Positions 1 through 34,122 of a DNA stretch of 64,000 nt are shown here, one piece after another. Under the pieces are notes generated by a model. The model did no database searches and was not told the origin of the DNA. It was given only the letters and a program-made list of their open reading frames with translations. Source of the stretch: Candidatus Omnitrophota bacterium. GTDB taxonomy: Bacteria > Omnitrophota > Gorgyraeia > Gygaellales > Profunditerraquicolaceae. The stretch covers positions 8,559-72,558 of the forward strand of contig JBAYMG010000004.1 in assembly GCA_041663665.1 (NCBI GenBank), given 5' to 3'. Made by a program: the position numbers and the translations under genes. The stretch's first letter is position 1, and each line of letters starts with the position of its first letter.

Positions 1-50
1 TAACAGCCGGGCTTTTATTTTTAGTAAAAGGGGATAAGCCGCAAGGTTTA

Positions 51-1847
51 TTGATTAAGTTATCAGCTTTGGCTGTTTCTTCCGCTGTTCTTTTATTGCT
101 TTTTACTACTTTTCATGGCAGTATCCGGTATTTTAAGGCAGAATCACATTTAATTGACAGGGTTATATTCTTTACCGAATTAGTTTTATCAGCGTATGTA
201 TTGTATTTAGGGTTAAAGTTTAAGCGTCTTTGGGTGACGCTATTTATTTTGCTTCAGGCAGTTTTAATGCTTTATTTTGAATATTCTTCCGACTGGAGAG
301 TTGTTGCCGAATACAATTTATTTATTGATAAATTTTCAATCTTGATGTCTTTAATTGTCGGCATTATTGGTAGTTTAATCTGCGTATATGCTGTTAGTTA
401 TATGCGCGATTTTCATAAGAAGTATCATCAAGAGATAGAGGACCGGCGTAGTTTTTTCTTTTTTGTTATTTTTGTTTTTCTTTCGGCGATGTTCGGGGTA
501 ATTTTTTCAAATAATCTTCTTTGGCTTTATTTTTTCTGGGAGATAACTACTGTTTGTTCGTTTCTGCTCATTGGTTATAAGAGGTCAGAGGAGTCCAGAA
601 AGAATGCTTTTCATGCGTTAGAGATTAATTTATTAGGCGGTCTTGCATTTTTGTTGGCAATTATCTATTTTTACAAGGCAACCGGTAGCGTTGAATTGAA
701 TAAAGTTATGCTGCTAGGCAAGGCCTGGGCCTTGATCCCTGTGATGTTGATTTGTTTTGCCGGGTTAACCAAATCTGCGCAGCTTCCTTTTTCTTCCTGG
801 CTATTAGGGGCAATGGTTGCACCCACTCCGGTATCGGCACTTTTGCATTCTAGCACGATGGTTAAAGCCGGGGTGTATATAATTTTACGTTTTGCTGCAA
901 TTTTGCAAGGGACTATGGCAGGTTTTGCCCTGGCTTTAATAGGAGGAGTAACTTTTTTAGTTGCTTCATTTGTGGCGATTTCGCAAAATGATGCTAAAAA
1001 AGTTTTAGCCTATTCGACTATTGCTAACCTGGGGTTAATTGTCTTATGCGCTGGTATTGGCACCTATGAAGCAATGTGGGCTGCGATTTTACTCATTATG
1101 TTTCACGCAATTGCTAAGTGCCTCTTATTTCTTTGCGTGGGCACGGTTGAGCATGGGATACACAGTCGTAATATTGAGGATATGTCAGGGTTAATCATTG
1201 CTATGCCTAAGTTGTCTATTTTGATGCAAGTGGGTATGGCAGGTATGTTCTTAGCGCCATTCGGCATGTTAATCAGTAAGTGGGCGGTGCTTAAGGCCTT
1301 GGTGGATTATAATCCTTTGTTGGCCATATTTGTAGTTTTCGGAAGCTCGGTTACGTTGTTTTTCTGGGTTAAGTGGATGGGTAAATTAATTATTGTTACT
1401 GAACCAAGAGAAGAAATTGAACATGGGGTAGGTAAAGGGCAATGGTTTTCTTTAACCAGCCTTTCAATATTAACTATTGGTATCTGCGGGTTTTTCCCGC
1501 TAGTCTCCTCCATTTTAATTGAACCGTATTGTCTTGAAATTTATGCCCGGACCATTACGATGAGCAAGGGAAATATTGAAATTATGTCGATTATGTTAGC
1601 ACTGGTTATGCTTTTCCCGTTGAGCTTTATTAATTATGGAAAACGGGTTAAAGTTGTCGATGCCTATTTGGGTGGGGCTAATGTTAATAATAATGTACAG
1701 TTTCGCGGTTCTGCCGGTGCAATTAAAAATATGTCGATGAATAATTATTACCTTCAGGATTATTTCAGCGAAAAGAGGTTATTTAAATTCGGAGTAATTA
1801 TTACTGTTGTTCTGGTGATTGCCATGTTGGGTTTATCTTTACTATGA
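51..1847 (+). CDS. echA: Ech-type hydrogenase membrane subunit EchA (NuoL/MrpA-like antiporter-type subunit)
   Basis: 598-aa polytopic membrane protein with the NuoL/M/N-Mrp signature 'WLLGAMVAPTPVSALLHSSTMVKAGVYIILRF'. First gene of an echABCDEF-ordered cluster. Confidence 0.8.
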   Translation: MIKLSALAVSSAVLLLLFTTFHGSIRYFKAESHLIDRVIFFTELVLSAYVLYLGLKFKRLWVTLFILLQAVLMLYFEYSSDWRVVAEYNLFIDKFSILMSLIVGIIGSLICVYAVSYMRDFHKKYHQEIEDRRSFFFFVIFVFLSAMFGVIFSNNLLWLYFFWEITTVCSFLLIGYKRSEESRKNAFHALEINLLGGLAFLLAIIYFYKATGSVELNKVMLLGKAWALIPVMLICFAGLTKSAQLPFSSWLLGAMVAPTPVSALLHSSTMVKAGVYIILRFAAILQGTMAGFALALIGGVTFLVASFVAISQNDAKKVLAYSTIANLGLIVLCAGIGTYEAMWAAILLIMFHAIAKCLLFLCVGTVEHGIHSRNIEDMSGLIIAMPKLSILMQVGMAGMFLAPFGMLISKWAVLKALVDYNPLLAIFVVFGSSVTLFFWVKWMGKLIIVTEPREEIEHGVGKGQWFSLTSLSILTIGICGFFPLVSSILIEPYCLEIYARTITMSKGNIEIMSIMLALVMLFPLSFINYGKRVKVVDAYLGGANVNNNVQFRGSAGAIKNMSMNNYYLQDYFSEKRLFKFGVIITVVLVIAMLGLSLL

Positions 1848-2698
1848 ATATCTTCCTGAATATTTTACTTTATTTGATTTCAGCGCCTTTAATCGGAGGG
1901 CTCTTGTCAGGTATAGATAGGAAAATTACCGCGCGCATGCAATCTAGGATCGGCCCGCCTATCCTGCAGCCGTTTTTTGATGTTTTAAAATTAATTCAAA
2001 AGGATAACCTGGTAGTCAGGAGATCTCAAAATTTTTATATCGGGTTTTTTCTTATTTTGGTTATTTTTACCGGTGGTTTATTTTTTACCGGCAAGGACAT
2101 ACTGTTGGTAATTTTTGCTTTTACTTTGGCAGCTATATTTTTTGTTTTGGCTGGATTTAAGGCTAGTTCACCCTATAGTTTTATCGGTGCTCAGAGAGAG
2201 TTGCTGCAAATGATGGCTTATGAGCCGATTATTATTTTAAGCGCAGTGGGCATGTATATGGTTACGCGCAGTTTTTATGTAGTTGATATCATAGCCTATG
2301 GCAAGCCTTTAATCAATTATTTACCGGGTATATTTTTTGGTTTGTTGTATATTTTAGCCATGAAGTTCAGGAAATCACCCTTTGATTTATCTACTTCACA
2401 TCATGCCCACCAGGAATTAGTCAAAGGAATCACTACGGAGTTTTCCGGCAGGACGTTGGCAATGATTGAGATTGCACATTGGTTTGAAAATATGTTCATT
2501 TTAGGTATTATCTATTTGTTTTTCGCTAGTTTTCCCCTAGCCGGTATACTTTTGAGCTTATTGTCCTATTTTTTAGTTATTCTTATTGATAATACTTTTG
2601 CCAGAGTTAAATGGCAATTAGCTTTGTTCAGTTCCTGGTTAGTTGCTTTAATTTTTGGTTTTGGAAATCTTTTGATTTTGTTTATTTTACCTAAATAA
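1844..2698 (+). CDS. echB: Ech hydrogenase membrane subunit EchB (NuoH/HycD-like)
   Basis: 284-aa membrane protein whose N-terminal 'RMQSRIGPPILQPFFDVLKLIQKD' resembles NuoH/HycD; overlaps echA stop by 4 nt. Confidence 0.8.
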   Translation: MNIFLNILLYLISAPLIGGLLSGIDRKITARMQSRIGPPILQPFFDVLKLIQKDNLVVRRSQNFYIGFFLILVIFTGGLFFTGKDILLVIFAFTLAAIFFVLAGFKASSPYSFIGAQRELLQMMAYEPIIILSAVGMYMVTRSFYVVDIIAYGKPLINYLPGIFFGLLYILAMKFRKSPFDLSTSHHAHQELVKGITTEFSGRTLAMIEIAHWFENMFILGIIYLFFASFPLAGILLSLLSYFLVILIDNTFARVKWQLALFSSWLVALIFGFGNLLILFILPK

Positions 2699-2700
2699 AA

Positions 2701-3621
2701 ATGTCATATTTAAAAAAATCTCCCTGGGTTATTCATTATGATGCCTCAAGCTGTAATGGCTGCGATATCGAGGTTTTGGCTTGTCTTACTCCGGTTTATG
2801 ATTTGGAACGTTTTGGGATAATTAATACCGGTAACCCAAAGCATGCGGACATATTCTTAGTTACCGGTTCGGTAAATGAACAGAATAAAGAAGTAATCCA
2901 GAATATTTATCTTCAGATACCTGATCCTAAGGTGGTATTAGCTTTGGGTGTTTGTGCGACTTCCGGAGGCGTATTCCGCGAATGTTATAATGTTTCCGGA
3001 GGGGTGGACAAGATTATTCCGGTTGATGTTTATGTGCCGGGGTGCGCTGTACGCCCGGAGGCGATAATTGACGGGGTGGTTAAAGGGTTAAAAATTCTTG
3101 AAGAAAAACATAAAATGTTTAAAGCCATTAGCGGCGGAAAAGAAAAAGTAGATATTTGCCAAGCGGTTGTTGAAGACGATCAAGAGATTCTTAGCTTGCA
3201 GAAATTAGCCTATCAAGGAGAGGCGGAGATTTATAATGATTTTAGCCTTTCTCCGCTGGTTCAAACGTTAGGGGAACTGAAAAATGATTTTAAAGATATG
3301 CTTTTCTTAAAAAGCACTATGCATGGTAAAATTATCGGTTCAGTACGGGCGTATGTGCAGCAGGGCACTTGTCATATTGGCCGGGTAATCGTACATCCAA
3401 GTTATCAGAATTATGGATTAGGCAAAAAGTTAGTACACCAGATTGAATCCCGTTTTCCTCAAGCCACTAGGTATGAGGTTTTTACCGGGCATAAGAGCCG
3501 GCGTAATATTTATTTTTATCAAAGCTTAGGGTATAAAATATTTAAACGGGAAATGGTTTCCGAGCTGCGTGACAGGGTTTTTATGGAGAAGTTGGGATTA
3601 ATGGGGTTAAAAAATGATTGA
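2701..3621 (+). CDS. echC: Ech hydrogenase small subunit EchC (NuoB-like, [4Fe-4S]) with C-terminal GNAT acetyltransferase-like domain
   Basis: N-terminal ~137 aa match NuoB/EchC ('SCNGCDIEVLACLTPVYDLERFGI', 'GVCATSGG', 'VDVYVPGCAVRPEAI'). C-terminal ~165 aa show a GNAT fold signature ('GRVIVHPSYQNYGLGKKLVHQIE', 'IYFYQSLGYKI'). Single continuous frame. Confidence 0.75.
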   Translation: MSYLKKSPWVIHYDASSCNGCDIEVLACLTPVYDLERFGIINTGNPKHADIFLVTGSVNEQNKEVIQNIYLQIPDPKVVLALGVCATSGGVFRECYNVSGGVDKIIPVDVYVPGCAVRPEAIIDGVVKGLKILEEKHKMFKAISGGKEKVDICQAVVEDDQEILSLQKLAYQGEAEIYNDFSLSPLVQTLGELKNDFKDMLFLKSTMHGKIIGSVRAYVQQGTCHIGRVIVHPSYQNYGLGKKLVHQIESRFPQATRYEVFTGHKSRRNIYFYQSLGYKIFKREMVSELRDRVFMEKLGLMGLKND

Positions 3622-3967
3622 AGAGCAGAAGTTGATCGGAATTGAAATTAAAGATTTATTAAGCCAGGTTGGTGATCTGCATAGTTCCGGCCATAGATTG
3701 GTGCAGATTGGTTGTACAAAATTGCCTGAACACTTGGAGGTAAATTATTCTTTTGATAAAGGGTACCGGTTGGTTAATTTAAAGATTAAGGTTATAGATT
3801 TAAATATTGAAGTTCCCAGCGTAAGCAATATCTATTGGTGTGCATTTCTATATGAAAACGAAATTCACGATTTATTTGGCGTAAAATTTAAGGATATTGC
3901 TGTAGATTATAAAGGTAATTTTTATCGTACTTCAATAAAAAGAGGTTTTAATCCGCAAAATGAATAA
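3614..3967 (+). CDS. echD: Ech hydrogenase subunit EchD (NuoC-like)
   Basis: 117-aa protein in NuoC/EchD position between small and large subunits; overlapping start/stop with neighbours. Confidence 0.65.
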   Translation: MIEEQKLIGIEIKDLLSQVGDLHSSGHRLVQIGCTKLPEHLEVNYSFDKGYRLVNLKIKVIDLNIEVPSVSNIYWCAFLYENEIHDLFGVKFKDIAVDYKGNFYRTSIKRGFNPQNE

Positions 3968-5045
3968 TCCTAAGAGAACGATTATCCCTTTTGGCCCGCA
4001 ACATCCGATTTTGCCTGAGCCGATCCATTTGGATTTGGTAGTTGAAGATGAGAAAGTAATCCAGGCTATTCCTTCGTTAGGTTTTATCCATCGTGGCCTT
4101 GAAAAGCTGGTTGAGAAAAAAGATTTTATCGATTTTGTTTATATTGCCGAAAGAATTTGCGGTATCTGCAGCTTTATTCATGGCCTGACATATTGTCTTG
4201 CCATTGAAGAAATTATGCAGATAGAGGTACCTAAAAGAGCTGCTTATCTTCGCGTAATCTGGTCGGAATTATCGCGAATCCATAGCCATCTTTTATGGCT
4301 AGGGTTGACTGCTGATGCTTTTGGTTTTGAGGCACTTTTTATGCATACCTGGAAATTAAGGGAAAAGATTTTAGATATTATCGAGGAAACTACCGGCGGA
4401 CGGGTTATTTTTGGTTCGGCTAAAATCGGTGGAGTAAGAAAAGATATCCTGCCTGAGAAATTAGATGAAATTATTAAAAGCTTGGAGAAGTATTCTCAGG
4501 AGGTTAAAGAGATTACCGATGTTTTTATAAATGACAGCTCTGTTAAGCATCGTTTAGTCGGAGTCGGAGTGTTAAGCAAAGAAGATGCTTATTTACTGGG
4601 GGCTGTCGGGCCAACACTTAGGGCAAGCGGAGTGAGTTTAGATACGCGTAAATTAGGTTATGCTGCCTATCGAGATATTGATTTTAATCCGATAATTGAA
4701 ACAGCTGGGGATAGCTATAGCCGTTGTCTGGTTAGAATCAGGGAAATTTTTCAATCCGTCGATATAATTAAGCAGGCAGTTGGCAGGATGGATTCAGGAG
4801 ATATTGAAGTTAAAGTAAGCGGTACGCCTAAGGGTGAATTTTTTGCCAGGACTGAGCAGCCCAGGGGTGAAGTGATTTATTATGTTTTAGCTGATGGGTC
4901 GCGATTTCTACAAAGATTAAGAGTACGTACTCCTACTTTTGCCAATATCCCCGCTTTAGTTAAGTTAATTCCCGGATGTCAATTGGCTGATGTGCCGATC
5001 TTAGTTTTAACCATTGATCCCTGTATAAGTTGTACGGAGCGTTAA
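3960..5045 (+). CDS. echE: [NiFe] hydrogenase large subunit, group 4 (EchE/NuoD-like)
   Basis: N-terminal Ni-binding motif 'RICGICSFIH' and C-terminal 'DPCISCTER' (DPCxxCxxR) diagnostic of [NiFe] large subunits; 361 aa fits EchE. Confidence 0.85.
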   Translation: MNNPKRTIIPFGPQHPILPEPIHLDLVVEDEKVIQAIPSLGFIHRGLEKLVEKKDFIDFVYIAERICGICSFIHGLTYCLAIEEIMQIEVPKRAAYLRVIWSELSRIHSHLLWLGLTADAFGFEALFMHTWKLREKILDIIEETTGGRVIFGSAKIGGVRKDILPEKLDEIIKSLEKYSQEVKEITDVFINDSSVKHRLVGVGVLSKEDAYLLGAVGPTLRASGVSLDTRKLGYAAYRDIDFNPIIETAGDSYSRCLVRIREIFQSVDIIKQAVGRMDSGDIEVKVSGTPKGEFFARTEQPRGEVIYYVLADGSRFLQRLRVRTPTFANIPALVKLIPGCQLADVPILVLTIDPCISCTER

Positions 5046-5046
5046 G

Positions 5047-5385
5047 ATGAAATTATTTGTTATGGCAAAAAAGGTCTTAAGGAGTTTGTGTTCGAAGCCG
5101 GCTACATTTGGTTATCCTTTTGTGCCCAAAACTTATTATAAAAATACACGCGGTAGTATTGTTATAAATATTTCAAAATGTATTTATTGTTCGACTTGCC
5201 AGAGAAAATGCCCGGCTTGCGCCATTGTGGTAACAAAATCTGAGAAACAGTGGAAAATTGACCGCCTGCGCTGTGTGTCTTGCGGATATTGTGTGGATGT
5301 CTGTCCGGTTAAGTGCCTGGCTATGGATAATAATTATTCTTCTTCGACTTTAAAAAGAGAGGAGGAAATTTTTAGGCGTGCATGA
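5047..5385 (+). CDS. echF: Ech hydrogenase 2x[4Fe-4S] ferredoxin subunit EchF (NuoI-like)
   Basis: Two CxxCxxCxxxCP motifs ('CIYCSTCQRKCPAC', 'CVSCGYCVDVCPVKC'). Confidence 0.8.
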   Translation: MKLFVMAKKVLRSLCSKPATFGYPFVPKTYYKNTRGSIVINISKCIYCSTCQRKCPACAIVVTKSEKQWKIDRLRCVSCGYCVDVCPVKCLAMDNNYSSSTLKREEEIFRRA

Positions 5386-5716
5386 ATATCATATTGTTAA
5401 AAAGATTATTGAAGAGGTTTTAGCCAAAGATAATAATCAAGATGTTATTGAGATTTCTTTGTGTGCTAGTCAATCAAGCGGGCTAGACCCGGATTCAATT
5501 AGGCTCTATTTTGAAGATATCCGGCAAGAGCATCCCTGCCTGAGAGATAGTGAATTAAAGATTAGCTTAGTTAAAGTTAAGTTGCATTGCCCGAAATGTA
5601 ATTTAGATTTCGAACGCCAACAAAAAGATTTTTCCTGCCCAATATGCTCTTGCGAATCTGAGCGTTCTGCATCACAAAAAGAAATTTATGTTGATAAACT
5701 GGTATTTAGGCCTTAA
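5378..5716 (+). CDS. hypA: Hydrogenase nickel insertion protein HypA
   Basis: Starts 'MHEYHI', ~112 aa, Zn-finger CxxC...CxxC ('CPKCN...CPICSC'). Confidence 0.8.
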   Translation: MHEYHIVKKIIEEVLAKDNNQDVIEISLCASQSSGLDPDSIRLYFEDIRQEHPCLRDSELKISLVKVKLHCPKCNLDFERQQKDFSCPICSCESERSASQKEIYVDKLVFRP

Positions 5717-5718
5717 GT

Positions 5719-7023
5719 ATGTGTTATGCCATTCCCGGGAAAATAGAATCGATTAATGCCAAAATGGTTACGGTAGATTATTTTGGCGAGAAGAAAAAAG
5801 CTTTGAATGAGCTAACCGGATTATCTGTTGGTGATTATGTTTATGCCCAGGGCGGCTATCTTATCTCCAAGGTTCCTCAGCAACAGGCAGAAGAGTCGCT
5901 TTCTATTTGGAAAGATTTATTTTTTAGCCTTAAGGAGCTGGACAATCGCCTTGCCCAATATCCTAATGATAAAAAAGATAGCCAAAGCAGGTCTGCAAAG
6001 ATATTCCGCAAAGTGACTCAGGCGCAAGATCCTTCTGTAGATGAGCTAGGATATTTGCTTTCGCTTACCGAGAAAAACGAATTAGAGGAATTTTTTAAAT
6101 TTTCCAATTCTTTACGTAAAAGCTATCTTAGTAACTCTTGTTGTGTGCATGGAATTATTGAGATCTCTAACTATTGCCAACGGCAATGTAGTTATTGCGG
6201 AATTTCTACGCAGAATAAAAACCTTAAGCGTTATAAGATGACTAAGGAGGAGATTATTCAAAGCGTAGAAGAAGCTGTAAATATTTATGGTTTTAAGGCT
6301 TTGGTTTTGCAAAGCGGAGAGAGTGACGCCTATGGTATTGAGGAATTAGTTGAGATTATCAGTCAGATAAAGAAAAGATTTGCGGTCTTAATTTTTATTA
6401 GCTTCGGCGAGATTGGGAAAGAAGGGTTAGCTAAATTGTATCAGGCTGGAGCTAGGGGCCTTTTGATGCGTTTTGAAACCAGCAATCCTGATTTGTATGA
6501 GAAGTTGCATCCTGGCGCATCTTTGGATGAGAGGTTATTACAGATTGATTACGCCTACAATTTAGGTTATTTGATCATTACCGGTGCGCTCATCGGTTTA
6601 CCGGGTCAAACCGGTCAGGATATAATTAATGATATCCGGCTTGCCCGTAAGCTCCATGCTGAAATGTTTAGTTTCGGGCCGTTTATCAGGCACCCGGAGA
6701 CTCCGCTGGCCAAAGCAGTGGAATCTAAAGAAGAAGATATCTTAAAGGTTTTAGCTTTGTGCCGATTATTGGCAGATGCGCAAACTAAGATTTTAGTAAC
6801 TACGGGATTTGAGAGCATTAGTAACCAAGCCCGCGAAAAAGGCCTTGCTTGTGGAGGAAATTCGGTTATGCTGAATATAACGCCTTTAAAATTCCGCAGG
6901 CTGTATAATATTTATCCGAATCGGGCACATGAGCAGGAGACGATTGAAACTCAGATTAAGGATGTTTTGGATCTATTGAAAAGCATGGGCAGGGCGCCTA
7001 CTGATTTAGGGGTAAGTGTTTAA
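5719..7023 (+). CDS. Fusion protein: N-terminal HypC-like [NiFe] maturation chaperone domain + HydE-like radical SAM enzyme
   Basis: First ~55 aa 'MCYAIPGKIESINAKMVTVDYFG...VGDYVYAQGGYLISKV' match HypC/HupF (MC[LY]AIP). From ~aa 110 a HydE-type N-terminus and radical SAM core ('LSLTEKNELEEFFKFSNSLRKSY...GIIEISNYCQRQCSYCGIS', CxxxCxxC). Length 434 aa = HypC (~80) + linker + HydE (~300). Confidence 0.7.
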   Translation: MCYAIPGKIESINAKMVTVDYFGEKKKALNELTGLSVGDYVYAQGGYLISKVPQQQAEESLSIWKDLFFSLKELDNRLAQYPNDKKDSQSRSAKIFRKVTQAQDPSVDELGYLLSLTEKNELEEFFKFSNSLRKSYLSNSCCVHGIIEISNYCQRQCSYCGISTQNKNLKRYKMTKEEIIQSVEEAVNIYGFKALVLQSGESDAYGIEELVEIISQIKKRFAVLIFISFGEIGKEGLAKLYQAGARGLLMRFETSNPDLYEKLHPGASLDERLLQIDYAYNLGYLIITGALIGLPGQTGQDIINDIRLARKLHAEMFSFGPFIRHPETPLAKAVESKEEDILKVLALCRLLADAQTKILVTTGFESISNQAREKGLACGGNSVMLNITPLKFRRLYNIYPNRAHEQETIETQIKDVLDLLKSMGRAPTDLGVSV

Positions 7024-7049
7024 AAAGTTAAAGGGAGGTTAAAAAGCTA

Positions 7050-7667
7050 ATGAATATCTGGCAGTTGGTTAAAGTAGGCGGTTTTACTATGGTGCTGCTT
7101 TTATTGGCGTCAGTATTATCTCTGGCAATTATTCTGGAAAGAATTATTTCTTATCGTAATAAAACTAGAATAAAAAGAAAAGATTTTATGTTAAGAATAC
7201 GTGAAGCATTAAAAAGGCAGGGAATAAAGCCGGCTATTGAGATCTGCAAAACTACCAACACTCCTTTTGCCCAGGTAGCTTACGCCGGTTTAAGTTTCTT
7301 TGATTGCAGTGAAAAAGAGATATCCAATAATATGGAGCGTCAGATCATAATCGAAACTACAATTCTTGAACGTTTTACTTCGATCATCGGTACAATCGGA
7401 AGTATCTCGGTTTACGTGGGGTTATTCGGAACAGTTTTAGGGATTATCCGGGCTTTTCATGATATATCAGTCAGTGGTTCCGGAGGAATCAGTGTAGTAA
7501 TCAGCGGGATATCCGAAGCTTTGGCTTGCACTGCTGCCGGGCTTTGTGTTGCAGTTCCGGCGGTAATTGCCTATAACTATTTTATGAAGAAGATTGATGA
7601 TTTCATTAAAGATATGGAACTGGTGGCTTCTGAGTCTATGGATTTAATCAGCGTAATAAAAAAATGA
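7050..7667 (+). CDS. MotA/TolQ/ExbB family proton channel protein
   Basis: 205 aa, 3 TM segments, conserved C-terminal TM region typical of ExbB/TolQ. Confidence 0.75.
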   Translation: MNIWQLVKVGGFTMVLLLLASVLSLAIILERIISYRNKTRIKRKDFMLRIREALKRQGIKPAIEICKTTNTPFAQVAYAGLSFFDCSEKEISNNMERQIIIETTILERFTSIIGTIGSISVYVGLFGTVLGIIRAFHDISVSGSGGISVVISGISEALACTAAGLCVAVPAVIAYNYFMKKIDDFIKDMELVASESMDLISVIKK

Positions 7668-8068
7668 GACAGTTAGCCAGAAAACAGAAACTGATTGCTG
7701 AAATAAATATCACTCCGTTTACGGATGTTATTTTAGTTCTTTTGATTATTTTCATGATTACGACTCCGCTTATTTTGCAGTCAAATATCCGGGTCAATTT
7801 ACCGACTGCGGCAACTGGAAAACCGATAGAACAGGCCGTAAAAATTAATATCATGATCACTAATGAGGGCCTGATCTATTTAGATAATAAGCAGGTTTTA
7901 AAAAAAACGCTTAAGTCTGAGGTTGCCAGGTTAAGGCAAGTTAACCCCGAGCTGGAAGTGATTTTATTCTCGGATAAAATGGTCAGGTTTAAGGATATCG
8001 TCAGTCTGTTGGATATCTTTAATGAGCTGGGAATAAAAAACTTAAATATTGCCACAAAAGTAGAATAA
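7664..8068 (+). CDS. ExbD/TolR family biopolymer transport protein
   Basis: 134 aa, single N-terminal TM ('INITPFTDVILVLLIIFMITTP'), translationally coupled to upstream ExbB-like gene. Confidence 0.7.
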   Translation: MRQLARKQKLIAEINITPFTDVILVLLIIFMITTPLILQSNIRVNLPTAATGKPIEQAVKINIMITNEGLIYLDNKQVLKKTLKSEVARLRQVNPELEVILFSDKMVRFKDIVSLLDIFNELGIKNLNIATKVE

Positions 8069-8083
8069 ATTCTAAAGAATAAT

Positions 8084-8113
8084 TGACAATCGGGAAATTT
8101 GTGCTACTATAAT
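8084..8113 (+). promoter_or_regulatory. Sigma70-like promoter upstream of atp operon
   Basis: TTGACA (8084-8089), 18-nt spacer, TATAAT (8108-8113) in the intergenic region before the atp genes. Confidence 0.5.
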
Positions 8114-8203
8114 GATTGCTTATAAAAAAGCAGTTACACTTTTAACAGACGACTTAAATCCGATGGTGGATAGAAGGCGTCATTTTTTTTATCATAAGGG
8201 TTT

Positions 8204-8437
8204 ATGTCAAAAGAAAATTTTTATAAGGGGATAAAGATCGTGGGTTTTGTTTCTTTTATTCCGTTTATTTTAGCGGCTGGCCCGCTTGCAGGTTATTTTA
8301 CCGGTAATTTTTTACAAAAAAAATTAAATTTATCATCTTTGTGTGTATTTTTTGGTATTGCTTTCGGGTTTTTAATATCAATTACTGAAATAATTAAAAT
8401 TATAAAAGCGGTAAATAGGATAAATAAAAATAAATAA
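8204..8437 (+). CDS. Small membrane protein, putative ATP synthase AtpZ/AtpI-like
   Basis: 77 aa, two hydrophobic helices, immediately upstream of atpB; assignment by position only. Confidence 0.35.
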   Translation: MSKENFYKGIKIVGFVSFIPFILAAGPLAGYFTGNFLQKKLNLSSLCVFFGIAFGFLISITEIIKIIKAVNRINKNK

Positions 8438-8447
8438 ACTTTAAATC

Positions 8448-9191
8448 ATGAGTGTTCCAGAGCTTCCAGATATATTTGCAATTCTTGCAACTAAATTTCC
8501 CGAAAACAATTTTTTTAAATTTGTTTATCTTTGGGAAAATATTAGCTATTCTCTAGTCCTGGTTTTAATTTTAGGAGTTTTTGCTTTTTTTGCCTGCCGC
8601 AAAAAGAGTTTAATCCCAGGCCGCCTGCAAAATGTTGCTGAAGCTATTGTTGGTGGTTTAGATGATTTTGTCTGCGGGATTCTTGGGCCGAGCGGGAGGA
8701 GATATACCCCTTTTATCGGAACGTTATTTATCTACATTCTTTTTATGAACCTAGCCGGTTTAATTCCTTTTATTAAATCCCCGACTGCCAGTTGGTCGAC
8801 GACATTGGCTTTGGCTTTGTGTGTATTTTTTTATGTGCAGTATGCGGCAATCAAAGAACTGGGTTTTCTGGGGTATTTAGATCATTTGGCGGGTAAGCCT
8901 CGCGGGGTTTTAGCTTTTACAATTATCATGCCGTTATTTATGTTTGTTCTACATATTGTTACTGAGTTGATCCGCCCGTTAAGTTTATCTTTACGTTTGC
9001 GCGGCAATATCTGGGGGGATGAAATTTTGCTAGGGTTACTTTCTGGTTTTGGTATCACGGGCTTACCGCTTTTATTTTTTAATATGCTTATGGCAACTTT
9101 AGCTGCAGTTGTCCAGGCTGCAGTTTTTTGTTTATTGACTACTATTTATTTTGCACTTGTTTTAAATCACGAAGAAGAAACTGTACACTAA
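8448..9191 (+). CDS. atpB: F0F1 ATP synthase subunit a
   Basis: Conserved 'LSLSLRLRGNIWGDE' (a-subunit Arg motif), polytopic. Confidence 0.85.
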   Translation: MSVPELPDIFAILATKFPENNFFKFVYLWENISYSLVLVLILGVFAFFACRKKSLIPGRLQNVAEAIVGGLDDFVCGILGPSGRRYTPFIGTLFIYILFMNLAGLIPFIKSPTASWSTTLALALCVFFYVQYAAIKELGFLGYLDHLAGKPRGVLAFTIIMPLFMFVLHIVTELIRPLSLSLRLRGNIWGDEILLGLLSGFGITGLPLLFFNMLMATLAAVVQAAVFCLLTTIYFALVLNHEEETVH

Positions 9192-9203
9192 AGGGAGGAT
9201 GGA

Positions 9204-9431
9204 ATGGATTATAAAACAGCTTTAGATTTTGGTGTTCCGTTAGCACTAGGCATAGCGGCGTTTGGTTCTGCAATTGGTTTGGGGATAGCAGTGTCTGCAG
9301 CTTTAACCGGTGTGAGCAGGCAGCCGGAAGCAAGCAATAAGATAATGACAATGTTGATTATTGGCTGCGCTTTTATTGAAGCAATTACTATTTATGTTTT
9401 GGTATTTGCTTTTATGTATGCCAGTAAATAA
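9204..9431 (+). CDS. atpE: F0F1 ATP synthase subunit c
   Basis: 75 aa hairpin proteolipid with 'GLGIAVSAALTGVSRQPEA'. Confidence 0.85.
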   Translation: MDYKTALDFGVPLALGIAAFGSAIGLGIAVSAALTGVSRQPEASNKIMTMLIIGCAFIEAITIYVLVFAFMYASK

Positions 9432-9474
9432 TTTCCCCTTGTAAACTAGATACATAAAGGAAAGAGAAATTAGT

Positions 9475-9972
9475 ATGGAAATTTTAAAGATGCTTAGCGC
9501 AAGTGAAATCTTTGCGCAGATAATAAGTTTTATTCTTTTGTTAGTTCTGTTGCGTTTATTCGCTTGGAAAAAAATCCTTCTGCTTTTAGACCAGCGTAAA
9601 GAAAAAATTAGTTCTGAGTTTAAGGGAATAGAGGATACTAAGCTTGAGCTTGCCCGGCTTAAAAGTGATTATGAGTTGAAGCTTTCAACTGTTGCCAGTC
9701 AGGCCCAGGCAAAAATTGACGAATCTATTGAGCAGGCTCGGAAAATAAATGAGCAGATGCGTAAGAAGGCTCATGAAGAGGCTCAGGATATTATTACTGA
9801 TGCCCGTCTTCAGGTAAAATATGAGGTTTCCAAGGTTCAAGAGCAGATTAAAGAGAAAGTCGTTGATATTGCTTTGGGGGCCGCTAGATCAGTGATTCAG
9901 GAAAAACTTACTGAAGAGGGTGATCGTAAAATAGTTGAAGATTTTATTCGTCAACTGGATAAAACAGAATGA
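9475..9972 (+). CDS. atpF: F0F1 ATP synthase subunit b
   Basis: N-terminal TM then long charged coiled coil; operon position. Confidence 0.75.
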   Translation: MEILKMLSASEIFAQIISFILLLVLLRLFAWKKILLLLDQRKEKISSEFKGIEDTKLELARLKSDYELKLSTVASQAQAKIDESIEQARKINEQMRKKAHEEAQDIITDARLQVKYEVSKVQEQIKEKVVDIALGAARSVIQEKLTEEGDRKIVEDFIRQLDKTE

Positions 9973-12092: not shown

Positions 12093-14352
<2,260 letters not shown>

Positions 14353-14679: not shown

Positions 14680-15312
14680 ATGATTACAAATAAAAATTGC
14701 ATCATTCGGCTTTCTCGATATAAAAATGCTCTTTATAGGCTGCAGGCCCTGGGTTTTGTGAAAGTTTTCTCAGATAACTTAGCCGATGCGGTAGGCGGCA
14801 CTGCTTCTCAGGTCAGAAAAGATTTTTCCATTTTTGGTATCTCCGGAAATAAAAAAGGAGGTTACCAGATTGATTTCCTGCTGGAGAAGTTAAACAGTAT
14901 TTTAGGTAAAGACCAGCTGCAGAAAGTTATTGTCGTGGGTGCAGGTCACATTGGCAGCGCACTTATGCGTTATCGGGGCTTTGAAAAAGAAGGTATCAAA
15001 ATCGTTGCCGGCTTTGATATTGACCCGTCTAAGATTAATCGTTCTAATGCTGTTCCGATCTTACCCTTAGAGGAAGTTAAGGTTTTTATAAAATCTAACG
15101 GTATCCGTATAGCTGTTTTAGCCGTCCCGGATATTGCAGCCCAGCAGGCGGTAGATTTAATTTCTGCTGCGGGAATTAAGGGAATACTCAATTTTGCACC
15201 TTTAGGGCTTAAGGCCCCGGAAACTTGTATTATTAATAATGTAAATTTAGAAATTGAGCTTGAAAATTTGATTTATTTTGTGAACGTAGCCGAGAAAACT
15301 AAATTAAATTAA
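14680..15312 (+). CDS. rex: Redox-sensing transcriptional repressor Rex
   Basis: N-terminal wHTH 'IIRLSRYKNALYRLQALGF' and Rossmann 'VVGAGHIGSAL'; 210 aa; sits directly upstream of the [FeFe] hydrogenase genes. Confidence 0.85.
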   Translation: MITNKNCIIRLSRYKNALYRLQALGFVKVFSDNLADAVGGTASQVRKDFSIFGISGNKKGGYQIDFLLEKLNSILGKDQLQKVIVVGAGHIGSALMRYRGFEKEGIKIVAGFDIDPSKINRSNAVPILPLEEVKVFIKSNGIRIAVLAVPDIAAQQAVDLISAAGIKGILNFAPLGLKAPETCIINNVNLEIELENLIYFVNVAEKTKLN

Positions 15313-15322
15313 GGAAATCAAA

Positions 15323-15811
15323 ATGGTTGAAGAAAAAAAGAGTATGCCGGAAGAAATCGCTGATTTGGTAAAAAAGTGGCAGGATAAAGAAGGTAATTTG
15401 ATTATGATCCTGCATGAGCTGCAAAATTATTATGGTTATGTTCCCCGTCCAGCGGCTTTAGAATTGTCCCGGGTTTTGCGCACACCGTTAGCCAGGATCT
15501 ATGAGGTAATTACTTTTTATAATTTTTTTAAGCTCGAACCTCCGGGGAAGCATATTATTTCTTTATGTTTAGGCACTGCCTGTTATTTGAAGGGTTCAGC
15601 TATTTTGCTTAATGAGATTAAAAGTTTATTAAATGTTGAGGAAGGGCAAACTACCAAAGATGGATTGTTCCAACTAGATGTCGTGCGCTGCCTGGGTTGT
15701 TGCGGGTTGGCTCCGGTAATTAAAATTGACGATAAAATTTATGGTAAGGTAGAGAAGAACCAGGTAATGGGTATCCTCTCCGGATATGGCGATCATAAAA
15801 AAGAGGAATAA
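15323..15811 (+). CDS. hydC: [FeFe] hydrogenase NuoE-like [2Fe-2S] subunit (HydC/HndA)
   Basis: Thioredoxin-like 2Fe-2S motif 'CLGTACYLKGS...CLGCCGLAPV'. Confidence 0.85.
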   Translation: MVEEKKSMPEEIADLVKKWQDKEGNLIMILHELQNYYGYVPRPAALELSRVLRTPLARIYEVITFYNFFKLEPPGKHIISLCLGTACYLKGSAILLNEIKSLLNVEEGQTTKDGLFQLDVVRCLGCCGLAPVIKIDDKIYGKVEKNQVMGILSGYGDHKKEE

Positions 15812-15812
15812 A

Positions 15813-16166
15813 ATGGCCAAGCTTACAAAACAGGATTTAGATCAAATAAAAGCAACACATCAGGATGACGGTAAGGATTGGATCAAGGTCGGGATGAGTA
15901 CTTGCGGGATTGCCGCCGGAGCCGATAAAGTTTATGATTTCTTTGTCGACGAGATTAAGAAAAGAAAGCTGGATATCCAGGTTAAGAAATGCGGCTGCCA
16001 GGGGATGTGTTATTCTGAGCCTCTGGTGGAGGTTCGCGTGAAAGGTTTGCCGGATGTTATTTACGGAAGAGTTGATAAAGAAGGGGTAATGAAAATTTTA
16101 GATAAGCATGTTTGCGGTAACACGCTGGTTAAAGACTCTATTTACGAACTAAGGACAAAGAGGTAA
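15813..16166 (+). CDS. Small [2Fe-2S] thioredoxin-like ferredoxin subunit (HndB-like)
   Basis: Start taken at the second ATG (15813) with RBS AAGAGGA, 2 nt after hydC stop. Cys pattern 'STCGIAAGA...CGCQGMCYSEP'. Confidence 0.6.
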   Translation: MAKLTKQDLDQIKATHQDDGKDWIKVGMSTCGIAAGADKVYDFFVDEIKKRKLDIQVKKCGCQGMCYSEPLVEVRVKGLPDVIYGRVDKEGVMKILDKHVCGNTLVKDSIYELRTKR

Positions 16167-16172
16167 GGATAA

Positions 16173-17912
16173 ATGAACACAAAATTAGTTTTTATTAAGG
16201 ATACCAATGTAACTGTTGATGCGACTAAAGATTTTTATGCTGACTTCTTAAATTTATTACGCGAAAATTCCCTTGAGGATCAAGTGCAAGTGGTTAGAGT
16301 CGCGGATATGGGAATTTATGGGCAAGGGTTGGTAGTTAAATTCCCTGAGGCAGATATAATTTATGCTAATTTGCAGGAAAATGATTTAAAAAATATTATT
16401 ACTAAAACAATCAAAGAAGGCCAGGTGATTGATGAACTGTTATTTAAGACTGAGCCTAAGCAGTTAAGGATAGTTTTACGAAATTGCGGCGAGATAGATC
16501 CTGAGAATATTGATGAATATATCGCTTTAGACGGTTACCAGGCGTTAGTTAAAGCGATACTTGAATATAAGCCGGAACAGGTTATTGAGGAATTAAAAAT
16601 TAGCGGGTTACGGGGTAGAGGCGGAGCAGGATTCCCTACCTGGCTTAAATGGAAGCTTACCCGTGAGACCTCCGAGGCGCAGAAATATGTTATTTGTAAT
16701 GCCGATGAAGGTGACCCGGGCGCCTATATGGATAGAGGCGTGCTGGAGGGCGATCCGCATTCAGTTATCGAAGGGTTAATTTTGGCCGGATATGCTATCG
16801 GCGCATCCAAAGGATATTTTTATGTGCGCGCTGAATATCCTTTAGCCGTCGAAAGAGTTGAAAAGGCGATTAAGCAGTCGTACGATTATGGTTTCTTAGG
16901 GAAAAATATTTTAGGCAGTAATTTTAGTTTTGATATCGATATACGTTTAGGGGCCGGGGCGTTCGTTTGCGGCGAAGAGACAGCGTTGATTGCTTCAATT
17001 GAAGGCCGGCGGGGGACTCCGCGTCCACGTCCGCCGTACCCATCGGTGAAGGGTTTGTGGGATAAGCCTACGGCGATAAACAACGTTGAAACTTTGGCAA
17101 ATATCGGGCCGATTATCTTAAGAGGCGGGAAGTGGTACGCTTCTATCGGTACAGAAAAGTCTAAGGGAACAAAGGTTTTTGCGCTTACCGGCAAGGTTAA
17201 GAATTCGGGCTTAGTCGAGGTACCGATGGGGATTACTTTAAGGGAAATTGTTTTTGATATCGGCGGAGGGATGCTTTCCAGTAAAGGGATTAAGGCAATC
17301 CAAACCGGCGGGCCTAGCGGTGGAGTTATTCCCAGGGAATTTTTAGATACCCCGGTAGATTATGAAAATTTGCAGAAATTAGGTTCAATCATGGGTTCCG
17401 GCGGTATGATCGTTATGGATGAAGATGACTGCATGGTTGATATCGCTAAATTTTATTTAGGTTTTTGTGTGGATGAGTCTTGTGGCAAATGCGTACCTTG
17501 CCGTATTGGCGGATACCAAATGCTTTCGGTATTAGATAAAATTACTGAAGGCAGCGGTAAAGTTGAAGATTTGGATAAATTAAAAAGAATCGCTTTGGCT
17601 ATGCAGAAGGCTTCGCTTTGCGCTCTCGGCCAGACCGCAGCTAATCCGGTAATTTCGACTATCAGGTATTTTGAAGAAGAATATCAGGACCATATTGTGA
17701 ATAAAAAATGCCGGTCGCATAAGTGTAAACACCTGCTTAACTATAATGTTATTCAGGATAAGTGTAAGCGTTGCCGGGTTTGCGTAATTAATTGCCCGGT
17801 TAATGCGATTAACGGTGATAAGGAAAAAGGATTTTTTGTTGACCCTAAGGTTTGTATTCGGTGCGGTAAATGCTATGAAGTTTGTAAATTTAATGCGATT
17901 GCTAAGGAGTAA
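16173..17912 (+). CDS. hydB: [FeFe] hydrogenase NuoF-like NAD(P)H/FMN subunit (HydB)
   Basis: 'GLRGRGGAGFPTWLKW' FMN/NADH-binding motif, C-terminal 4Fe-4S ferredoxin motifs ('CKRCRVCVINCPV', 'CIRCGKCYEVC'). Confidence 0.9.
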   Translation: MNTKLVFIKDTNVTVDATKDFYADFLNLLRENSLEDQVQVVRVADMGIYGQGLVVKFPEADIIYANLQENDLKNIITKTIKEGQVIDELLFKTEPKQLRIVLRNCGEIDPENIDEYIALDGYQALVKAILEYKPEQVIEELKISGLRGRGGAGFPTWLKWKLTRETSEAQKYVICNADEGDPGAYMDRGVLEGDPHSVIEGLILAGYAIGASKGYFYVRAEYPLAVERVEKAIKQSYDYGFLGKNILGSNFSFDIDIRLGAGAFVCGEETALIASIEGRRGTPRPRPPYPSVKGLWDKPTAINNVETLANIGPIILRGGKWYASIGTEKSKGTKVFALTGKVKNSGLVEVPMGITLREIVFDIGGGMLSSKGIKAIQTGGPSGGVIPREFLDTPVDYENLQKLGSIMGSGGMIVMDEDDCMVDIAKFYLGFCVDESCGKCVPCRIGGYQMLSVLDKITEGSGKVEDLDKLKRIALAMQKASLCALGQTAANPVISTIRYFEEEYQDHIVNKKCRSHKCKHLLNYNVIQDKCKRCRVCVINCPVNAINGDKEKGFFVDPKVCIRCGKCYEVCKFNAIAKE

Positions 17913-17916
17913 TTAA

Positions 17917-19662
17917 ATGATTAAGGCTAAAATTAATAATTTACCGGTGGAGGTTGATAGCGGTACCTCTATCCTGGATGCGGCAAAAAAAGCTCAAATT
18001 AAAATTCCTACTCTTTGTAAGCACCCGGATCTTCCCCCCGGGGCCGGATGCGGGTTATGTATCGTTAGAATTAAGGGCACACCGAAGATGCTGCGGGCAT
18101 GCTGTACTCCGCTTGAGAATGGCATGGAAATTACGACGCACGATCCGGAAATTGTCGCTGTGCGCCGCACAGTGCTGGAACTTATTCTTTCCAATCATCC
18201 GAATGATTGCTTACAGTGCGGTAGAAATAATAATTGTGAATTGCAAACTTTAGTTGCTGATTTTGGTATTCGGGACGAGTCTTTCCAGAAATTTCTTCCG
18301 GATGTGGCTAAGGATGATTCAACCCGGACTATTGTTTTAGATCCCCAGAAATGTATCCGTTGCGGCAGATGCGTAGAAGTTTGCCAGCATATGCAGAATG
18401 TTTGGGCACTTTCATTTCTAGAGCGGGGTTTTTGTACCAGAATTTCACCGGCCGGAGATATTAAGTTGGCGGATTCTCCTTGTATCCGTTGTGGCCAATG
18501 TTCTAACCATTGCCCAACCGGAGCAATTGTTGAATTAGACGAAACGGCTAAAGTTTGGGAGTTGTTGCAGAATCAGGAAAAATATTGTGTAGTTCAGATT
18601 GCTCCGGCAGTAAGGGTAGCAATTGGCGAAGCATTTGGTTATCCGATCGGCACAAATTTAACTAAAAAATTGTATGCTTTATTAAGAAGGCTAGGGTTTA
18701 AAGCCGTTTTTGATACAAATTTTGGTGCCGATGTCACAATTATGGAGGAAGGCAGTGAATTTCTGCAAAGATTTTTGTACGGCAAGGGGTCTTTACCGTT
18801 AATTACTTCCTGTTGTCCGGGTTGGGTAGATTTTATGGAGAAGTTCCATCCGGATATGATTGATCATTTCTCCAGCTGTAAATCTCCGCATGAAATTGTC
18901 GGAGTATTGTCTAAAACATATTATGCTGAAAAACAAAAAATCGATCCTAAAAATATTGCCGTAATTTCAATTATGCCTTGTACGGCTAAGAAGAATGAAA
19001 TTATCCGTTCGGAAGAGATGCATGCTTCAGGCTGTCAGGATGTCGATGTAGTTTTAACCACCAGAGAATTAGCCCGGATGATTAAACAGGCTGGTATTGA
19101 TTTTGTGAATTTACCTGATGAGGATCCGGATCATCTACTCGGCGATTATACCGGAGCCGGGGTAATTTTTGGGGCAACTGGTGGAGTTATGGAAGCGGCT
19201 TTAAGAACTGCTTATTTTCTGCTCAACGGTAAAAATATGGAAAAAGTGGAATTAAACCAGATTCGAGGTTTAGATGGGGTTAAGGTTGCTGAAATTCCGA
19301 TTAACGGTAAGAAAATAAGAGTAGCTGTTGCGCATGGTTTAAATCACGTAGAGTATGTATTGGATAAAGTAAGGGAAGCTGAGAAAAATAACCAAGAGAT
19401 GCCGTATCACTTTATTGAAGTTATGGCTTGTCTTGGGGGTTGTGTTGGCGGCGGCGGGCAGCCGTACGGAGTAACTGACGAGTTAAGGACCAAGCGCGCC
19501 GCAGGTATTTATCAGGATGATAAAGAGTCTAAGCTGCGTTGTTCTCACGAGAACCCTTCTGTGCAGCAGCTTTATAAAGAATTTTTAGGTAAACCGTTAA
19601 GCGGGAAATCTGAACATCTTTTGCATACGCATTATCAAGCGCGGCCGGTTTACGTCAAATAA
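17917..19662 (+). CDS. hydA: [FeFe] hydrogenase catalytic subunit HydA (group A, bifurcating-type trimer)
   Basis: H-cluster motifs L1 'TSCCPGWV', L2 'MPCTAKKNE', L3 'EVMACLGGCVGGGGQP'. N-terminal 2Fe-2S and 4Fe-4S ferredoxin domains. Confidence 0.9.
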   Translation: MIKAKINNLPVEVDSGTSILDAAKKAQIKIPTLCKHPDLPPGAGCGLCIVRIKGTPKMLRACCTPLENGMEITTHDPEIVAVRRTVLELILSNHPNDCLQCGRNNNCELQTLVADFGIRDESFQKFLPDVAKDDSTRTIVLDPQKCIRCGRCVEVCQHMQNVWALSFLERGFCTRISPAGDIKLADSPCIRCGQCSNHCPTGAIVELDETAKVWELLQNQEKYCVVQIAPAVRVAIGEAFGYPIGTNLTKKLYALLRRLGFKAVFDTNFGADVTIMEEGSEFLQRFLYGKGSLPLITSCCPGWVDFMEKFHPDMIDHFSSCKSPHEIVGVLSKTYYAEKQKIDPKNIAVISIMPCTAKKNEIIRSEEMHASGCQDVDVVLTTRELARMIKQAGIDFVNLPDEDPDHLLGDYTGAGVIFGATGGVMEAALRTAYFLLNGKNMEKVELNQIRGLDGVKVAEIPINGKKIRVAVAHGLNHVEYVLDKVREAEKNNQEMPYHFIEVMACLGGCVGGGGQPYGVTDELRTKRAAGIYQDDKESKLRCSHENPSVQQLYKEFLGKPLSGKSEHLLHTHYQARPVYVK

Positions 19663-33009: not shown

Positions 33010-34122
33010 ATGCAAGCATATCTTGTTTTAGAAGATGGGACAATATTTAAAGGTAGCTCTTTTGGCTCAAACGGAGAAGTTACCGGAGAGGTTGTTTTTA
33101 ATACAAGCATGAGCGGATATCAGGAAATTATTACTGATCCTTCTTATGCCGGTCAGATTGTGGCGATGACTTATCCTTTAATCGGTAATTATGGTATTAA
33201 TCCAGAGGATATGGAAAGCCGGAAACCTTTTTTGCGCGGCCTGGTGATTAAGGAATATAGTAAACTGGCTAGCAACTGGAGGAAAGATCAGGAGCTGGGG
33301 GAATATTTAAAAGAAAATAATATTTTGGGAATTGAAGGAATCGACACCCGCCAATTAACTCTGCATATTAGAGAAAAAGGAGCGATGAAAGCGGTTTTAT
33401 CTACCTTGGATTCTAATGAGCAGAGTTTGGTTAATAAGGCTAAAGAAAGCAGATCCTTGGTGGGGTTGGATTTAGTTAAAGATGTTACTACTGCTAAGCA
33501 ATATGTTTTTGCCGAGAATAAGAAAAATAAATATAAGGTAATAGTTTTAGATTGCGGAGTGAAGTTTAACATATTAAGGGAGCTTGAGCTCCGTGAATGT
33601 AATGTTCTCGTTATGCCTGCCCAGTCAACTTCTGAGGAAATTCTAAAACTATCTCCCGATGGAGTTTTGCTTTCTAACGGCCCGGGAGATCCTGCGGCAG
33701 TAAATTATGTAGTTAAAACAGTTGCTGCGCTTATCGGTAAAGTGCCAATTTTTGGTATTTGTCTCGGGCATCAGATGCTAGGCCTTGCTTTAGGTGGCAA
33801 AACTTTCAAGCTTAAATTTGGCCATCATGGTGCCAATCACCCGGTCAAGGATTTAAGGACACAAAAAGTTTCTATAACCAGCCAGAATCACGGATTTTGT
33901 GTGGACATTGATTCTTTAAAACAAAACGATATCCAGTTAACCCATATTAATTTGAATGATGGTACTAGTGAGGGACTGCGCCATAAAAAACTGCCTTTAT
34001 TTTCTGTGCAGTTCCATCCAGAAGCATCTCCGGGCCCGCATGATTCAGAATATCTTTTTACCGAGTTTGTCGAATTAATGTCTAAATTTAAGAAATCAAA
34101 GAAATCGAAGAAAAATGCCTAA
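33010..34122 (+). CDS. carA: Carbamoyl-phosphate synthase small (glutaminase) subunit
   Basis: CarA N-domain + class I GATase 'GICLGHQML', 370 aa. Confidence 0.9.

Follow-up and report, generated by a model that had tools for sequence, protein, structure and literature searches.

Do some anaerobes assemble the iron ligands of their [NiFe] hydrogenases, a task taught as needing six Hyp proteins, with the help of radical S-adenosylmethionine (SAM) enzymes? The question is raised by a gene in a 64,000-nucleotide (nt) stretch of contig JBAYMG010000004.1 from a Candidatus Omnitrophota bacterium (hereafter the window). The gene, which is the last of an echABCDEF-hypA operon, encodes a HypC-type carrier joined to a radical SAM enzyme of the HydE subfamily, a type otherwise associated with [FeFe] hydrogenases (Table 1). 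We found that it is a genuine fusion, that its position at the end of [NiFe] hydrogenase operons is conserved and that it is genomically coupled to hydG. Judged from its sequence and neighbours, it probably encodes a dedicated [NiFe]-hydrogenase maturase.

The fusion is one open frame of 434 amino acids (aa) whose ATG lies 2 nt past the hypA stop codon, and the protein is deposited at NCBI, as an exact match, under the name 'radical SAM protein [Candidatus Omnitrophota bacterium]'. Pfam places HupF_HypC (PF01455) on aa 1-64 with 51.2 bits (gathering score 28.5) and Radical_SAM on aa 147-308 with 73.1 bits, while the NCBIfam HypC model TIGR00074 gives 36.5-40.5 bits, under its cutoff of 48. The best NCBIfam family is HydE (TIGR03956), with 235.8 bits over aa 98-412 and 236.9 bits for the radical SAM domain alone; its equivalog cutoff of 254.6 is exceeded by some other fused members (P0134, 263 bits; P0139, 283 bits). 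Scores for PylB (140.9 bits; cutoff 348.2), BioB (93.3; 225) and HmdB (62.5; 320.9), together with lower structural similarity, rule out an identity with any of these three families. An AlphaFold2 model built with 92 homologues is confident (predicted local distance difference test, pLDDT, 93.1; predicted template-modelling score, pTM, 0.93), its sole less confident part being aa 81-90 of the linker (pLDDT 65), a segment whose columns also vary in the fusion alignment. The initial annotation had read the gene as a HypC N-terminus followed by a complete HydE-type domain in one open reading frame (ORF). The profile searches that it proposed bear out both halves and their union; the word 'complete' does not hold, since the score is under the equivalog cutoff and the Arg/Thr/Arg trio of the S3 product site is absent.

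An assembly error or frameshift that joined separate hypC and hydE genes, which the initial annotation had named as a way in which it could be wrong, has practically no probability left. We searched protein clusters at 90% identity and took the best 120, which match at 55-73% identity: every one is a two-domain protein, between 416 and 448 aa long. In a GTDB scan with one genome per species, at least 407 species genomes encode a relative, and the fusion is thus no frameshift artefact. The HypC/HydE junction is colinear and conserved in the alignment, and that reading is refuted by its recurrence across over 120 independent clusters and 407 species genomes, produced by many assemblers, together with the single confident predicted fold. 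Most relatives are from Omnitrophota; others are from Margulisiibacteriota, Saganbacteria/WOR-1, Brevinematales, Caldatribacterium and metagenome-assembled genomes (MAGs) labelled Planctomycetes, Elusimicrobia and others. When the divergent members were looked up for cultured hosts, only MAGs turned up. Annotation pipelines at present mislabel the fusion, with cluster names that vary between HydE, HypC, biotin synthase and 'radical SAM protein'. It had also been allowed that the fusion might prove common and already characterised: common it is, and in the full-text literature, subscription-only papers not covered, we found no description of it, nor of a role for HydG in [NiFe] maturation.

The N-terminal domain begins MCYAIPGK, with M1, C2 and P6 invariant in 92 fusions, and Cys2 aligns with Cys2 of the solved HypCs of T. 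kodakarensis, Shewanella and E. coli. It has in common with HypC, HybG and HupF (PF01455; 2Z1C, 3VYR, 2OT2) the Met-Cys-x-x-x-Pro-Gly start, the essential Cys2, a beta barrel that resembles an oligonucleotide-binding (OB) fold and is followed by a C-terminal helix, and a genomic place next to hypA and hycI in [NiFe] operons. It differs from them in a near-invariant Gln where they have His, in its TIGR00074 score below cutoff, in never standing beside hypD in the 1.57 Mb of loci searched and in the covalently tethered radical SAM enzyme.

The C-terminal domain has the fold of HydE and a changed active site. Foldseek aligns it with T. maritima HydE (TmHydE) at a template-modelling score of 0.94, a root-mean-square deviation of 1.5 Å and 36% identity, ahead of PylB and BioB. 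Published work on TmHydE (PMC11826987, PMC10114646) assigns to M224 and M291 the binding and relay of Fe(CO)2CN, an iron unit carrying carbon monoxide (CO) and cyanide (CN). It places R54, T134, R155 and T269 around the S3 product site, and mutations there impair maturation; S3, lined by R54, T134 and R155 together with M224, is where Fe(CO)2CN was seen. The residues with an assigned function in HydE were traced in 46 fused and 129 unfused sequences. On the SAM and synthon side the fusions keep them: the CX3CX2C motif is invariant, and Q107, V105, L157, R159, T268, T269, M224 and M291 (TmHydE numbering) are conserved, corresponding in the window protein to Q198, V196, L249, R251, T361 and T362 and to the relay methionines M316 and M384. 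The product side is not: the Arg/Thr/Arg trio, which canonical HydEs keep in about 85% of sequences, has become His/Phe/Gly, and the residue at TmHydE H52 is an invariant Cys (Table 1). H52 and R54 lie two residues apart on strand beta-1 of the homologue, so C142 and H144 should both face the cavity beside M316. The window's stand-alone HydE has R54, T134, R155 and the auxiliary-cluster cysteines, whereas the fusion has neither the trio nor these cysteines.

In a neighbour-joining tree rooted on E. coli BioB, the sequences that carry the Cys/His signature group together as a single clade (bootstrap 79/100), with TmHydE and the window HydE falling outside it, and none of the canonical (R54) HydEs in the set carries a HypC domain. 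A biotin synthase-like origin, which the initial annotation had left possible, is thus not what we found: the best family is TIGR03956, the nearest fold is TmHydE and the domain belongs to a distinct HydE subclade. Compared with known HydEs (TIGR03956; T. maritima 3IIZ, 7O1O, 7O1T), the fusion has in common the (beta-alpha)8 fold, the CX3CX2C motif, the SAM-side residues, the methionines and the genomic partnership with HydG. It differs in its score under the cutoff, in the His/Phe/Gly trio with its added Cys, in the missing auxiliary-cluster cysteines, in the tether to HypC and in its place in [NiFe] rather than [FeFe] operons, without hydF. The most fitting description of the protein is a new subfamily of HydE recruited into the maturation of [NiFe] enzymes.

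The genomic neighbourhoods were examined in 81 loci, the window and 80 from GTDB, with about 20 kb visible per genome; ORFs were called and classified against the window genes, the E. coli hyp/hyc region and a group-3 operon. The fusion almost always closes a [NiFe] hydrogenase operon, in which a beta-gamma-small-large set (group 3b-like), an Ech set or an Mbh/Mrp-type group 4 set typically comes ahead of hycI, hypA and the fusion, in that order. A [NiFe] large subunit (group 3b-like, Ech or Mbh-like) was found in 67/81 loci and the HycI protease in 61/81, and a recognisable HypA precedes the fusion in 41/81; the large subunits retain both Cys ligand pairs. Locus L063 adds a fourth operon type, a group-1-like enzyme of the twin-arginine translocation (Tat) type, with the fusion and hydG upstream of it. 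In this locus the small-subunit operon is led by these two genes and has tatC and hypB downstream, and the small subunit itself (L063:12855-14834; Oxidored_q6 plus NiFe_hyd_SSU_C) bears C-terminal bacterial immunoglobulin-like domains.

Together with rex, hydG is the commonest downstream neighbour of the fusion. It is the next gene in 19/81 loci, commonly overlapping or 0-6 nt apart, and follows in the order fusion-rex-hydG in 13 more, that is, directly or after rex in 32/81; anywhere in the locus it occurs in 44/81. Five of the [NiFe]-linked HydGs were tested and scored 419-525 bits against a HydG cutoff of 312. The complete chromosome CP070684.1 (1.275 Mb) has a free-standing module of three genes, namely hypA, the fusion and hydG. 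In two cases the partners form one polypeptide, a HypC-HydE-HydG triple fusion: P0123 (906 aa) closes a group-3b-like [NiFe] operon, and P0129 (881 aa) is encoded next to genes for the small and the large [NiFe] subunit, with hypA close by. Two HydEs of the fusion's subclade that are not fused, P0144 and P0249, also adjoin a [NiFe] large-subunit gene and stand directly before hydG. The initial annotation had proposed a HydE paralogue recruited to [NiFe] maturation, a proposal that the four operon types, the adjacent hydG, the triple fusions and the remodelled product site support; it had not named HydG as a partner, and likely the key one, whose adjacency emerged from the locus survey.

Three side observations concern these neighbours. 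Directly following the fusion in 26/81 loci, often before hydG or an [FeFe] hydrogenase, rex suggests by its placement an NADH/NAD-dependent control of these gene sets. P0148 (803 aa) is a HydE-HydG fusion without HypC, with both halves over their equivalog cutoffs, and is presumably what corresponds to the triple fusions in the [FeFe] pathway. A subclass of HydG has an altered C-terminal auxiliary-cluster motif, C-T-A-G-Y-R-C-G-R-T-G-x-C-I-M...F-C in place of CX2CX22C; it occurs in L073 (11308-12807), L045, L035, L049, L054, L059, L063 and L026, still scores over the HydG cutoff (460 bits in L073) and is found after the fusion and also in a hydF-hydG-hydE cluster (L026).

Comparison of syntenic relatives indicates how hydG may have come to its place. 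The window has the order ATP synthase, rex-hydABC, hydG-hydE-hydF, nfnAB and a set of conserved genes; in L025 the order is ATP synthase, NiFe-3b-hycI-fusion, hydG, nfnAB and the same conserved genes, and L016, L056, L064, L033 and L012 have the hydG-nfnAB-downstream arrangement in common with the window. In these six relatives hydG is 63-75% identical to the window hydG and lies behind the fusion, among them orthologues at 71-75% identity that follow it directly, and hydE and hydF are absent. These comparisons indicate that hydG was kept and moved beside the fusion where its [FeFe]-specific partners were lost. In L012, an 85-aa ORF between hydG and nfnA (12757-13014) corresponds to residues 320-403 of HydF alone (83% identity), as if left over from a deletion of hydE-hydF. 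Saganbacteria, which are reported to lack [FeFe] hydrogenases (PMC6349859), have MAGs that carry NiFe-3b-hycI-hypA-fusion-hydG.

The remaining Hyp proteins are scarce around the fusion. We ran tblastn with E. coli HypB, HypC, HypD, HypE and HypF against 95 non-E. coli loci (1.57 Mb, about 90 genomes, six frames, E<=0.01). HypD, HypE and HypF gave 0 matches each in these neighbourhoods of about 20 kb per genome, HypB gave 2, and HypC gave 78, all within fusion genes. The HypD, HypE and HypF families were likewise missing from the Pfam gene tables of the loci inspected. Clustering of the unassigned ORFs within five genes of the fusion gave no candidate substitute for them, the clustered neighbours being only a sensor kinase, NfnB-like proteins, Mrp subunits and housekeeping genes. 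hydF occurs in only 3 of the 95 loci, one of them a remnant. In the window, Pfam and tblastn found no hypB, hypC, hypD, hypE or hypF outside the fusion, in line with the initial annotation, and no hyp genes occur in the contig flanks 8 kb upstream and 10 kb downstream (window plus flanks, 61.4-143.5 kb of the 144-kb contig).

The explanation that we favour, and consider likely, is that the fusion is a dedicated [NiFe] maturase that processes the HydG synthon onto Cys2 of its HypC domain. HydG would cleave tyrosine and build the [Fe(Cys)(CO)2(CN)] synthon. The HydE-like barrel would bind this synthon, and a 5'-deoxyadenosyl radical would attack the cysteine sulfur, as in HydE. In place of the Arg/Thr/Arg site, on which HydE relies for its di-iron product, stand Cys142 and His144, with Met316 kept and a bulky Phe226, and because of this replacement the iron carbonyl-cyanide unit may be held mononuclear. 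It would then pass to Cys2 of the tethered HypC domain, which would play the scaffold role that HydF has for [FeFe] enzymes, and be delivered to the apo large subunit, here EchE. HypA would then insert nickel, and HycI would act on large subunits that carry a C-terminal extension. Tyrosine would be the source of the CO and of at least one CN, and the HypD/HypE/HypF step would be bypassed wholly or partly. The stronger form of this proposal, a route independent of HypD, HypE and HypF in which HydG supplies CO and CN and the HydE-derived HypC fusion delivers a mononuclear iron unit into the [NiFe] large subunit, is one that we put forward only tentatively.

Several findings weigh against the proposal. 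The synthon has 2 CO:1 CN and the [NiFe] site 1 CO:2 CN, which obliges the scheme to include a further exchange of ligands. The His that has been implicated in iron handling by HypC (E. coli His51, T. kodakarensis His45) is Gln44 in alignments with all four Protein Data Bank HypCs, and this Gln is at least 90% conserved in 92 fusions. The search that missed hypD, hypE and hypF spans about 20 kb per genome rather than whole genomes. hydG lies within 2.5 kb downstream in only 27 of the 62 loci that have at least 2.5 kb of downstream sequence, and in the window it lies 13 kb off, in a normal hydGEF cluster beside an [FeFe] hydrogenase. There, the link to the fusion is by orthology only, because the orthologous hydG adjoins the fusion in relatives, and the single hydG of this genome would by inference serve both the [NiFe] and the [FeFe] pathways. 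The stem branch of the signature clade is short in the neighbour-joining tree, and every sequence derives from uncultured MAGs.

Some of these points would be eased by the main rival explanation, which is also the version of the initial annotation: the fusion works with canonical HypD, HypE and HypF whose genes lie elsewhere in the genome, carbamoyl phosphate provides the cyanides as usual, and the radical SAM domain, with or without HydG, gives only the CO, as a missing anaerobic CO source in these lineages. Such a division would answer what a 2025 review of [NiFe] cofactor biosynthesis calls the most pressing question, the anaerobic origin of CO. It would satisfy 1 CO:2 CN more easily, it suits a HypC domain that keeps Cys2 and the HypC fold, and hypDEF could sit beyond the visible 20 kb. 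We regard it as unlikely, however: hypC and hypD are normally adjacent, whereas this HypC domain never stands beside hypD, hypE or hypF in 1.57 Mb from about 90 genomes; its histidine is lost; and HydG, the conserved neighbour, makes CN as well as CO.

Two further readings are very improbable in our estimate. The fusion might be an alternative HydE for the [FeFe] H-cluster, its HypC-like OB domain a carrier towards HydF and its proximity to [NiFe] genes incidental. HydE is indeed its best family and fold, the substrate-side residues and both relay methionines are conserved, and many host genomes, the window's included, also have [FeFe] hydrogenases. Yet this genome already has a canonical hydE in hydGEF, the fusion stands behind hycI and hypA in four [NiFe] operon types, the S3 trio, in which mutations impair [FeFe] maturation, is replaced in the fused members, hydF is missing from nearly all loci, and Saganbacteria, with their reported lack of [FeFe] hydrogenases, have the fusion. 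Alternatively, the radical SAM domain might do other chemistry, such as modifying the large subunit or making a small-molecule ligand, with HypC serving only to target it. The conservation with HydE of the residues on the complex-B and SAM side and of both relay methionines speaks against that idea, as do the coupling to hydG and the triple fusions, which argue for the HydG product as substrate, and we give it as little credence as the [FeFe] reading even though the score is under the HydE equivalog cutoff and the cavity is remodelled.

Set beside known systems, the fusion would act as HydE and HypC combined, but it lacks hallmarks by which both of its parent families are recognised: on the HydE side the cutoff score, the S3 site and the association with hydF and hydA, and on the HypC side the histidine and the adjacency to hypD. 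The proposed maturase would follow the same logic as the HydG-HydE-HydF pathway, to which the HydE-HydG fusion P0148 presumably belongs, in that a HydG synthon goes through a HydE-type radical step to a carrier and on to the apo-hydrogenase; it would differ in having HypC as the carrier instead of the GTPase HydF, a [NiFe] client and presumably a mononuclear product. HypX, the aerobic CO-ligand synthase, is likewise an accessory enzyme that provides a dedicated diatomic-ligand source for [NiFe] assembly. It works with HypCDEF and is found in aerobes, and as described in the literature it is unrelated in fold and chemistry, using formyl-tetrahydrofolate and coenzyme A rather than radical SAM. 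The radical SAM barrel superfamily of the fusion also includes HmdB, an HcgA-related HydE-like protein that takes part in [Fe]-hydrogenase cofactor synthesis, as well as PylB and BioB, with scores far below their cutoffs.

The 2025 review lists only Hyp proteins for [NiFe] cofactor biosynthesis and leaves radical SAM enzymes unmentioned. A compact conserved set of hypA, hypC-hydE and hydG in [NiFe] operons, with hypC-hydE-hydG sometimes one polypeptide, gives a testable hypothesis for the source of CO (and CN) in a large group of anaerobes. It may also offer a minimal maturation cassette for heterologous production of [NiFe] hydrogenases and a natural HydE variant in which a mononuclear intermediate may be trapped. 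If the proposed role is true, the anaerobic origin of the CO ligand would be settled for Omnitrophota, Margulisiibacteriota/Saganbacteria and other anaerobic lineages, and the [FeFe] and [NiFe] maturation machineries would be interchangeable at the level of the iron synthon.

Table 1 Features of the window and residues of the fusion protein (positions count from the first nucleotide of the window; residue counts refer to 46 fused and 129 unfused sequences).
Feature	Position	Strand	Basis or remark
HypC-HydE fused maturase gene, 434 aa	5719-7023	+	Uninterrupted ORF, ATG start, domain profiles
HypC/HupF domain, aa 1-75	5719-5943	+	Cys2 at 5722-5724; Gln44 at 5848-5850
Helical linker, aa 76-97	5944-6009	+	Least conserved and least confident segment
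HydE-subfamily radical SAM (beta-alpha)8 domain, aa 98-434	6010-7020	+	TIGR03956, Foldseek
CX3CX2C motif, C153/C157/C160	6175-6198		Invariant in fusions
TmHydE V51 replaced by Cys (C141)	6139-6144 (C141-C142)		Fusions 37/46
TmHydE H52 replaced by Cys (C142)	6139-6144 (C141-C142)		Fusions 46/46
TmHydE R54 replaced by His (H144)	6148-6150		Fusions 46/46; R kept in unfused 110/129
TmHydE T134 replaced by Phe (F226)			Fusions 45/46; T kept in unfused 110/129
TmHydE R155 replaced by Gly (G247)			Fusions 43/46; R kept in unfused 108/129
echABCDEF, group 4 Ech-type [NiFe] hydrogenase, presumed client	1-5385	+	Pfam
EchC with GNAT domain	2701-3621		Oxidored_q6
EchE, large subunit	3960-5045		Keeps RICGIC and DPCISC ligand motifs; without C-terminal extension
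hypA, nickel insertion	5378-5716	+	Pfam HypA 66.9 bits; 8 nt overlap with echF
exbB/exbD pair	7050-8068		MotA/TolQ, ExbD/TolR
rex	14680-15312		
[FeFe] hydrogenase, served by hydE/hydF	15323-19662		
hydG, tyrosine lyase making the Fe(CO)2(CN)-cysteine synthon, inferred fusion partner	20101-21489	+	TIGR03955 469 bits
Canonical hydE, comparator	21476-22543	+	TIGR03956 334.1 bits
hydF, comparator	22536-23777	+	549 bits
639-aa ORF	28008-29927		No Pfam match
carA, half-length carB	33010-35776		

The surroundings of the fusion in the window are those of a bacterium with both types of hydrogenase. Pfam confirms the Ech and HypA context given by the initial annotation; echA is cut by the left window edge, and its start was found on the contig. 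Downstream of the fusion follow exbBD, an F-type ATP synthase, rex, a HydABC-type [FeFe] hydrogenase, hydG, hydE, hydF and nfnAB-like genes. The window HydG has the CX3CX2C and the C-terminal CX2CX22C motifs, and the second, canonical hydE that had been noted sits, as its score confirms, between hydG and hydF.

EchC carries a C-terminal GNAT acetyltransferase domain (aa ~193-287). This form, 300-306 aa long, also occurs in L001, L002, L055 and L080, and the EchC of the Ech operons L070 and L081 is 146 aa long and without GNAT. The exbB/exbD pair starts 27 nt past the fusion with a strong ribosome-binding site, the gap being free of a terminator-like site; it lies between the ech and ATP synthase operons, a layout also seen in L001 and L008. 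A promoter and terminator scan of window positions 1-9500 gave counts at shuffle level and was uninformative on operon ends. Farther downstream, carA has behind it a half-length carB (553 aa, with only the first ATP-grasp half and the oligomerisation domain), which is either split or truncated; a beta-CASP RNase gene comes next. The 639-aa ORF is syntenic, at 56-62% identity, in L012, L016, L025, L033, L056 and L064, and an HD-domain protein gene comes after it in most of these six loci.

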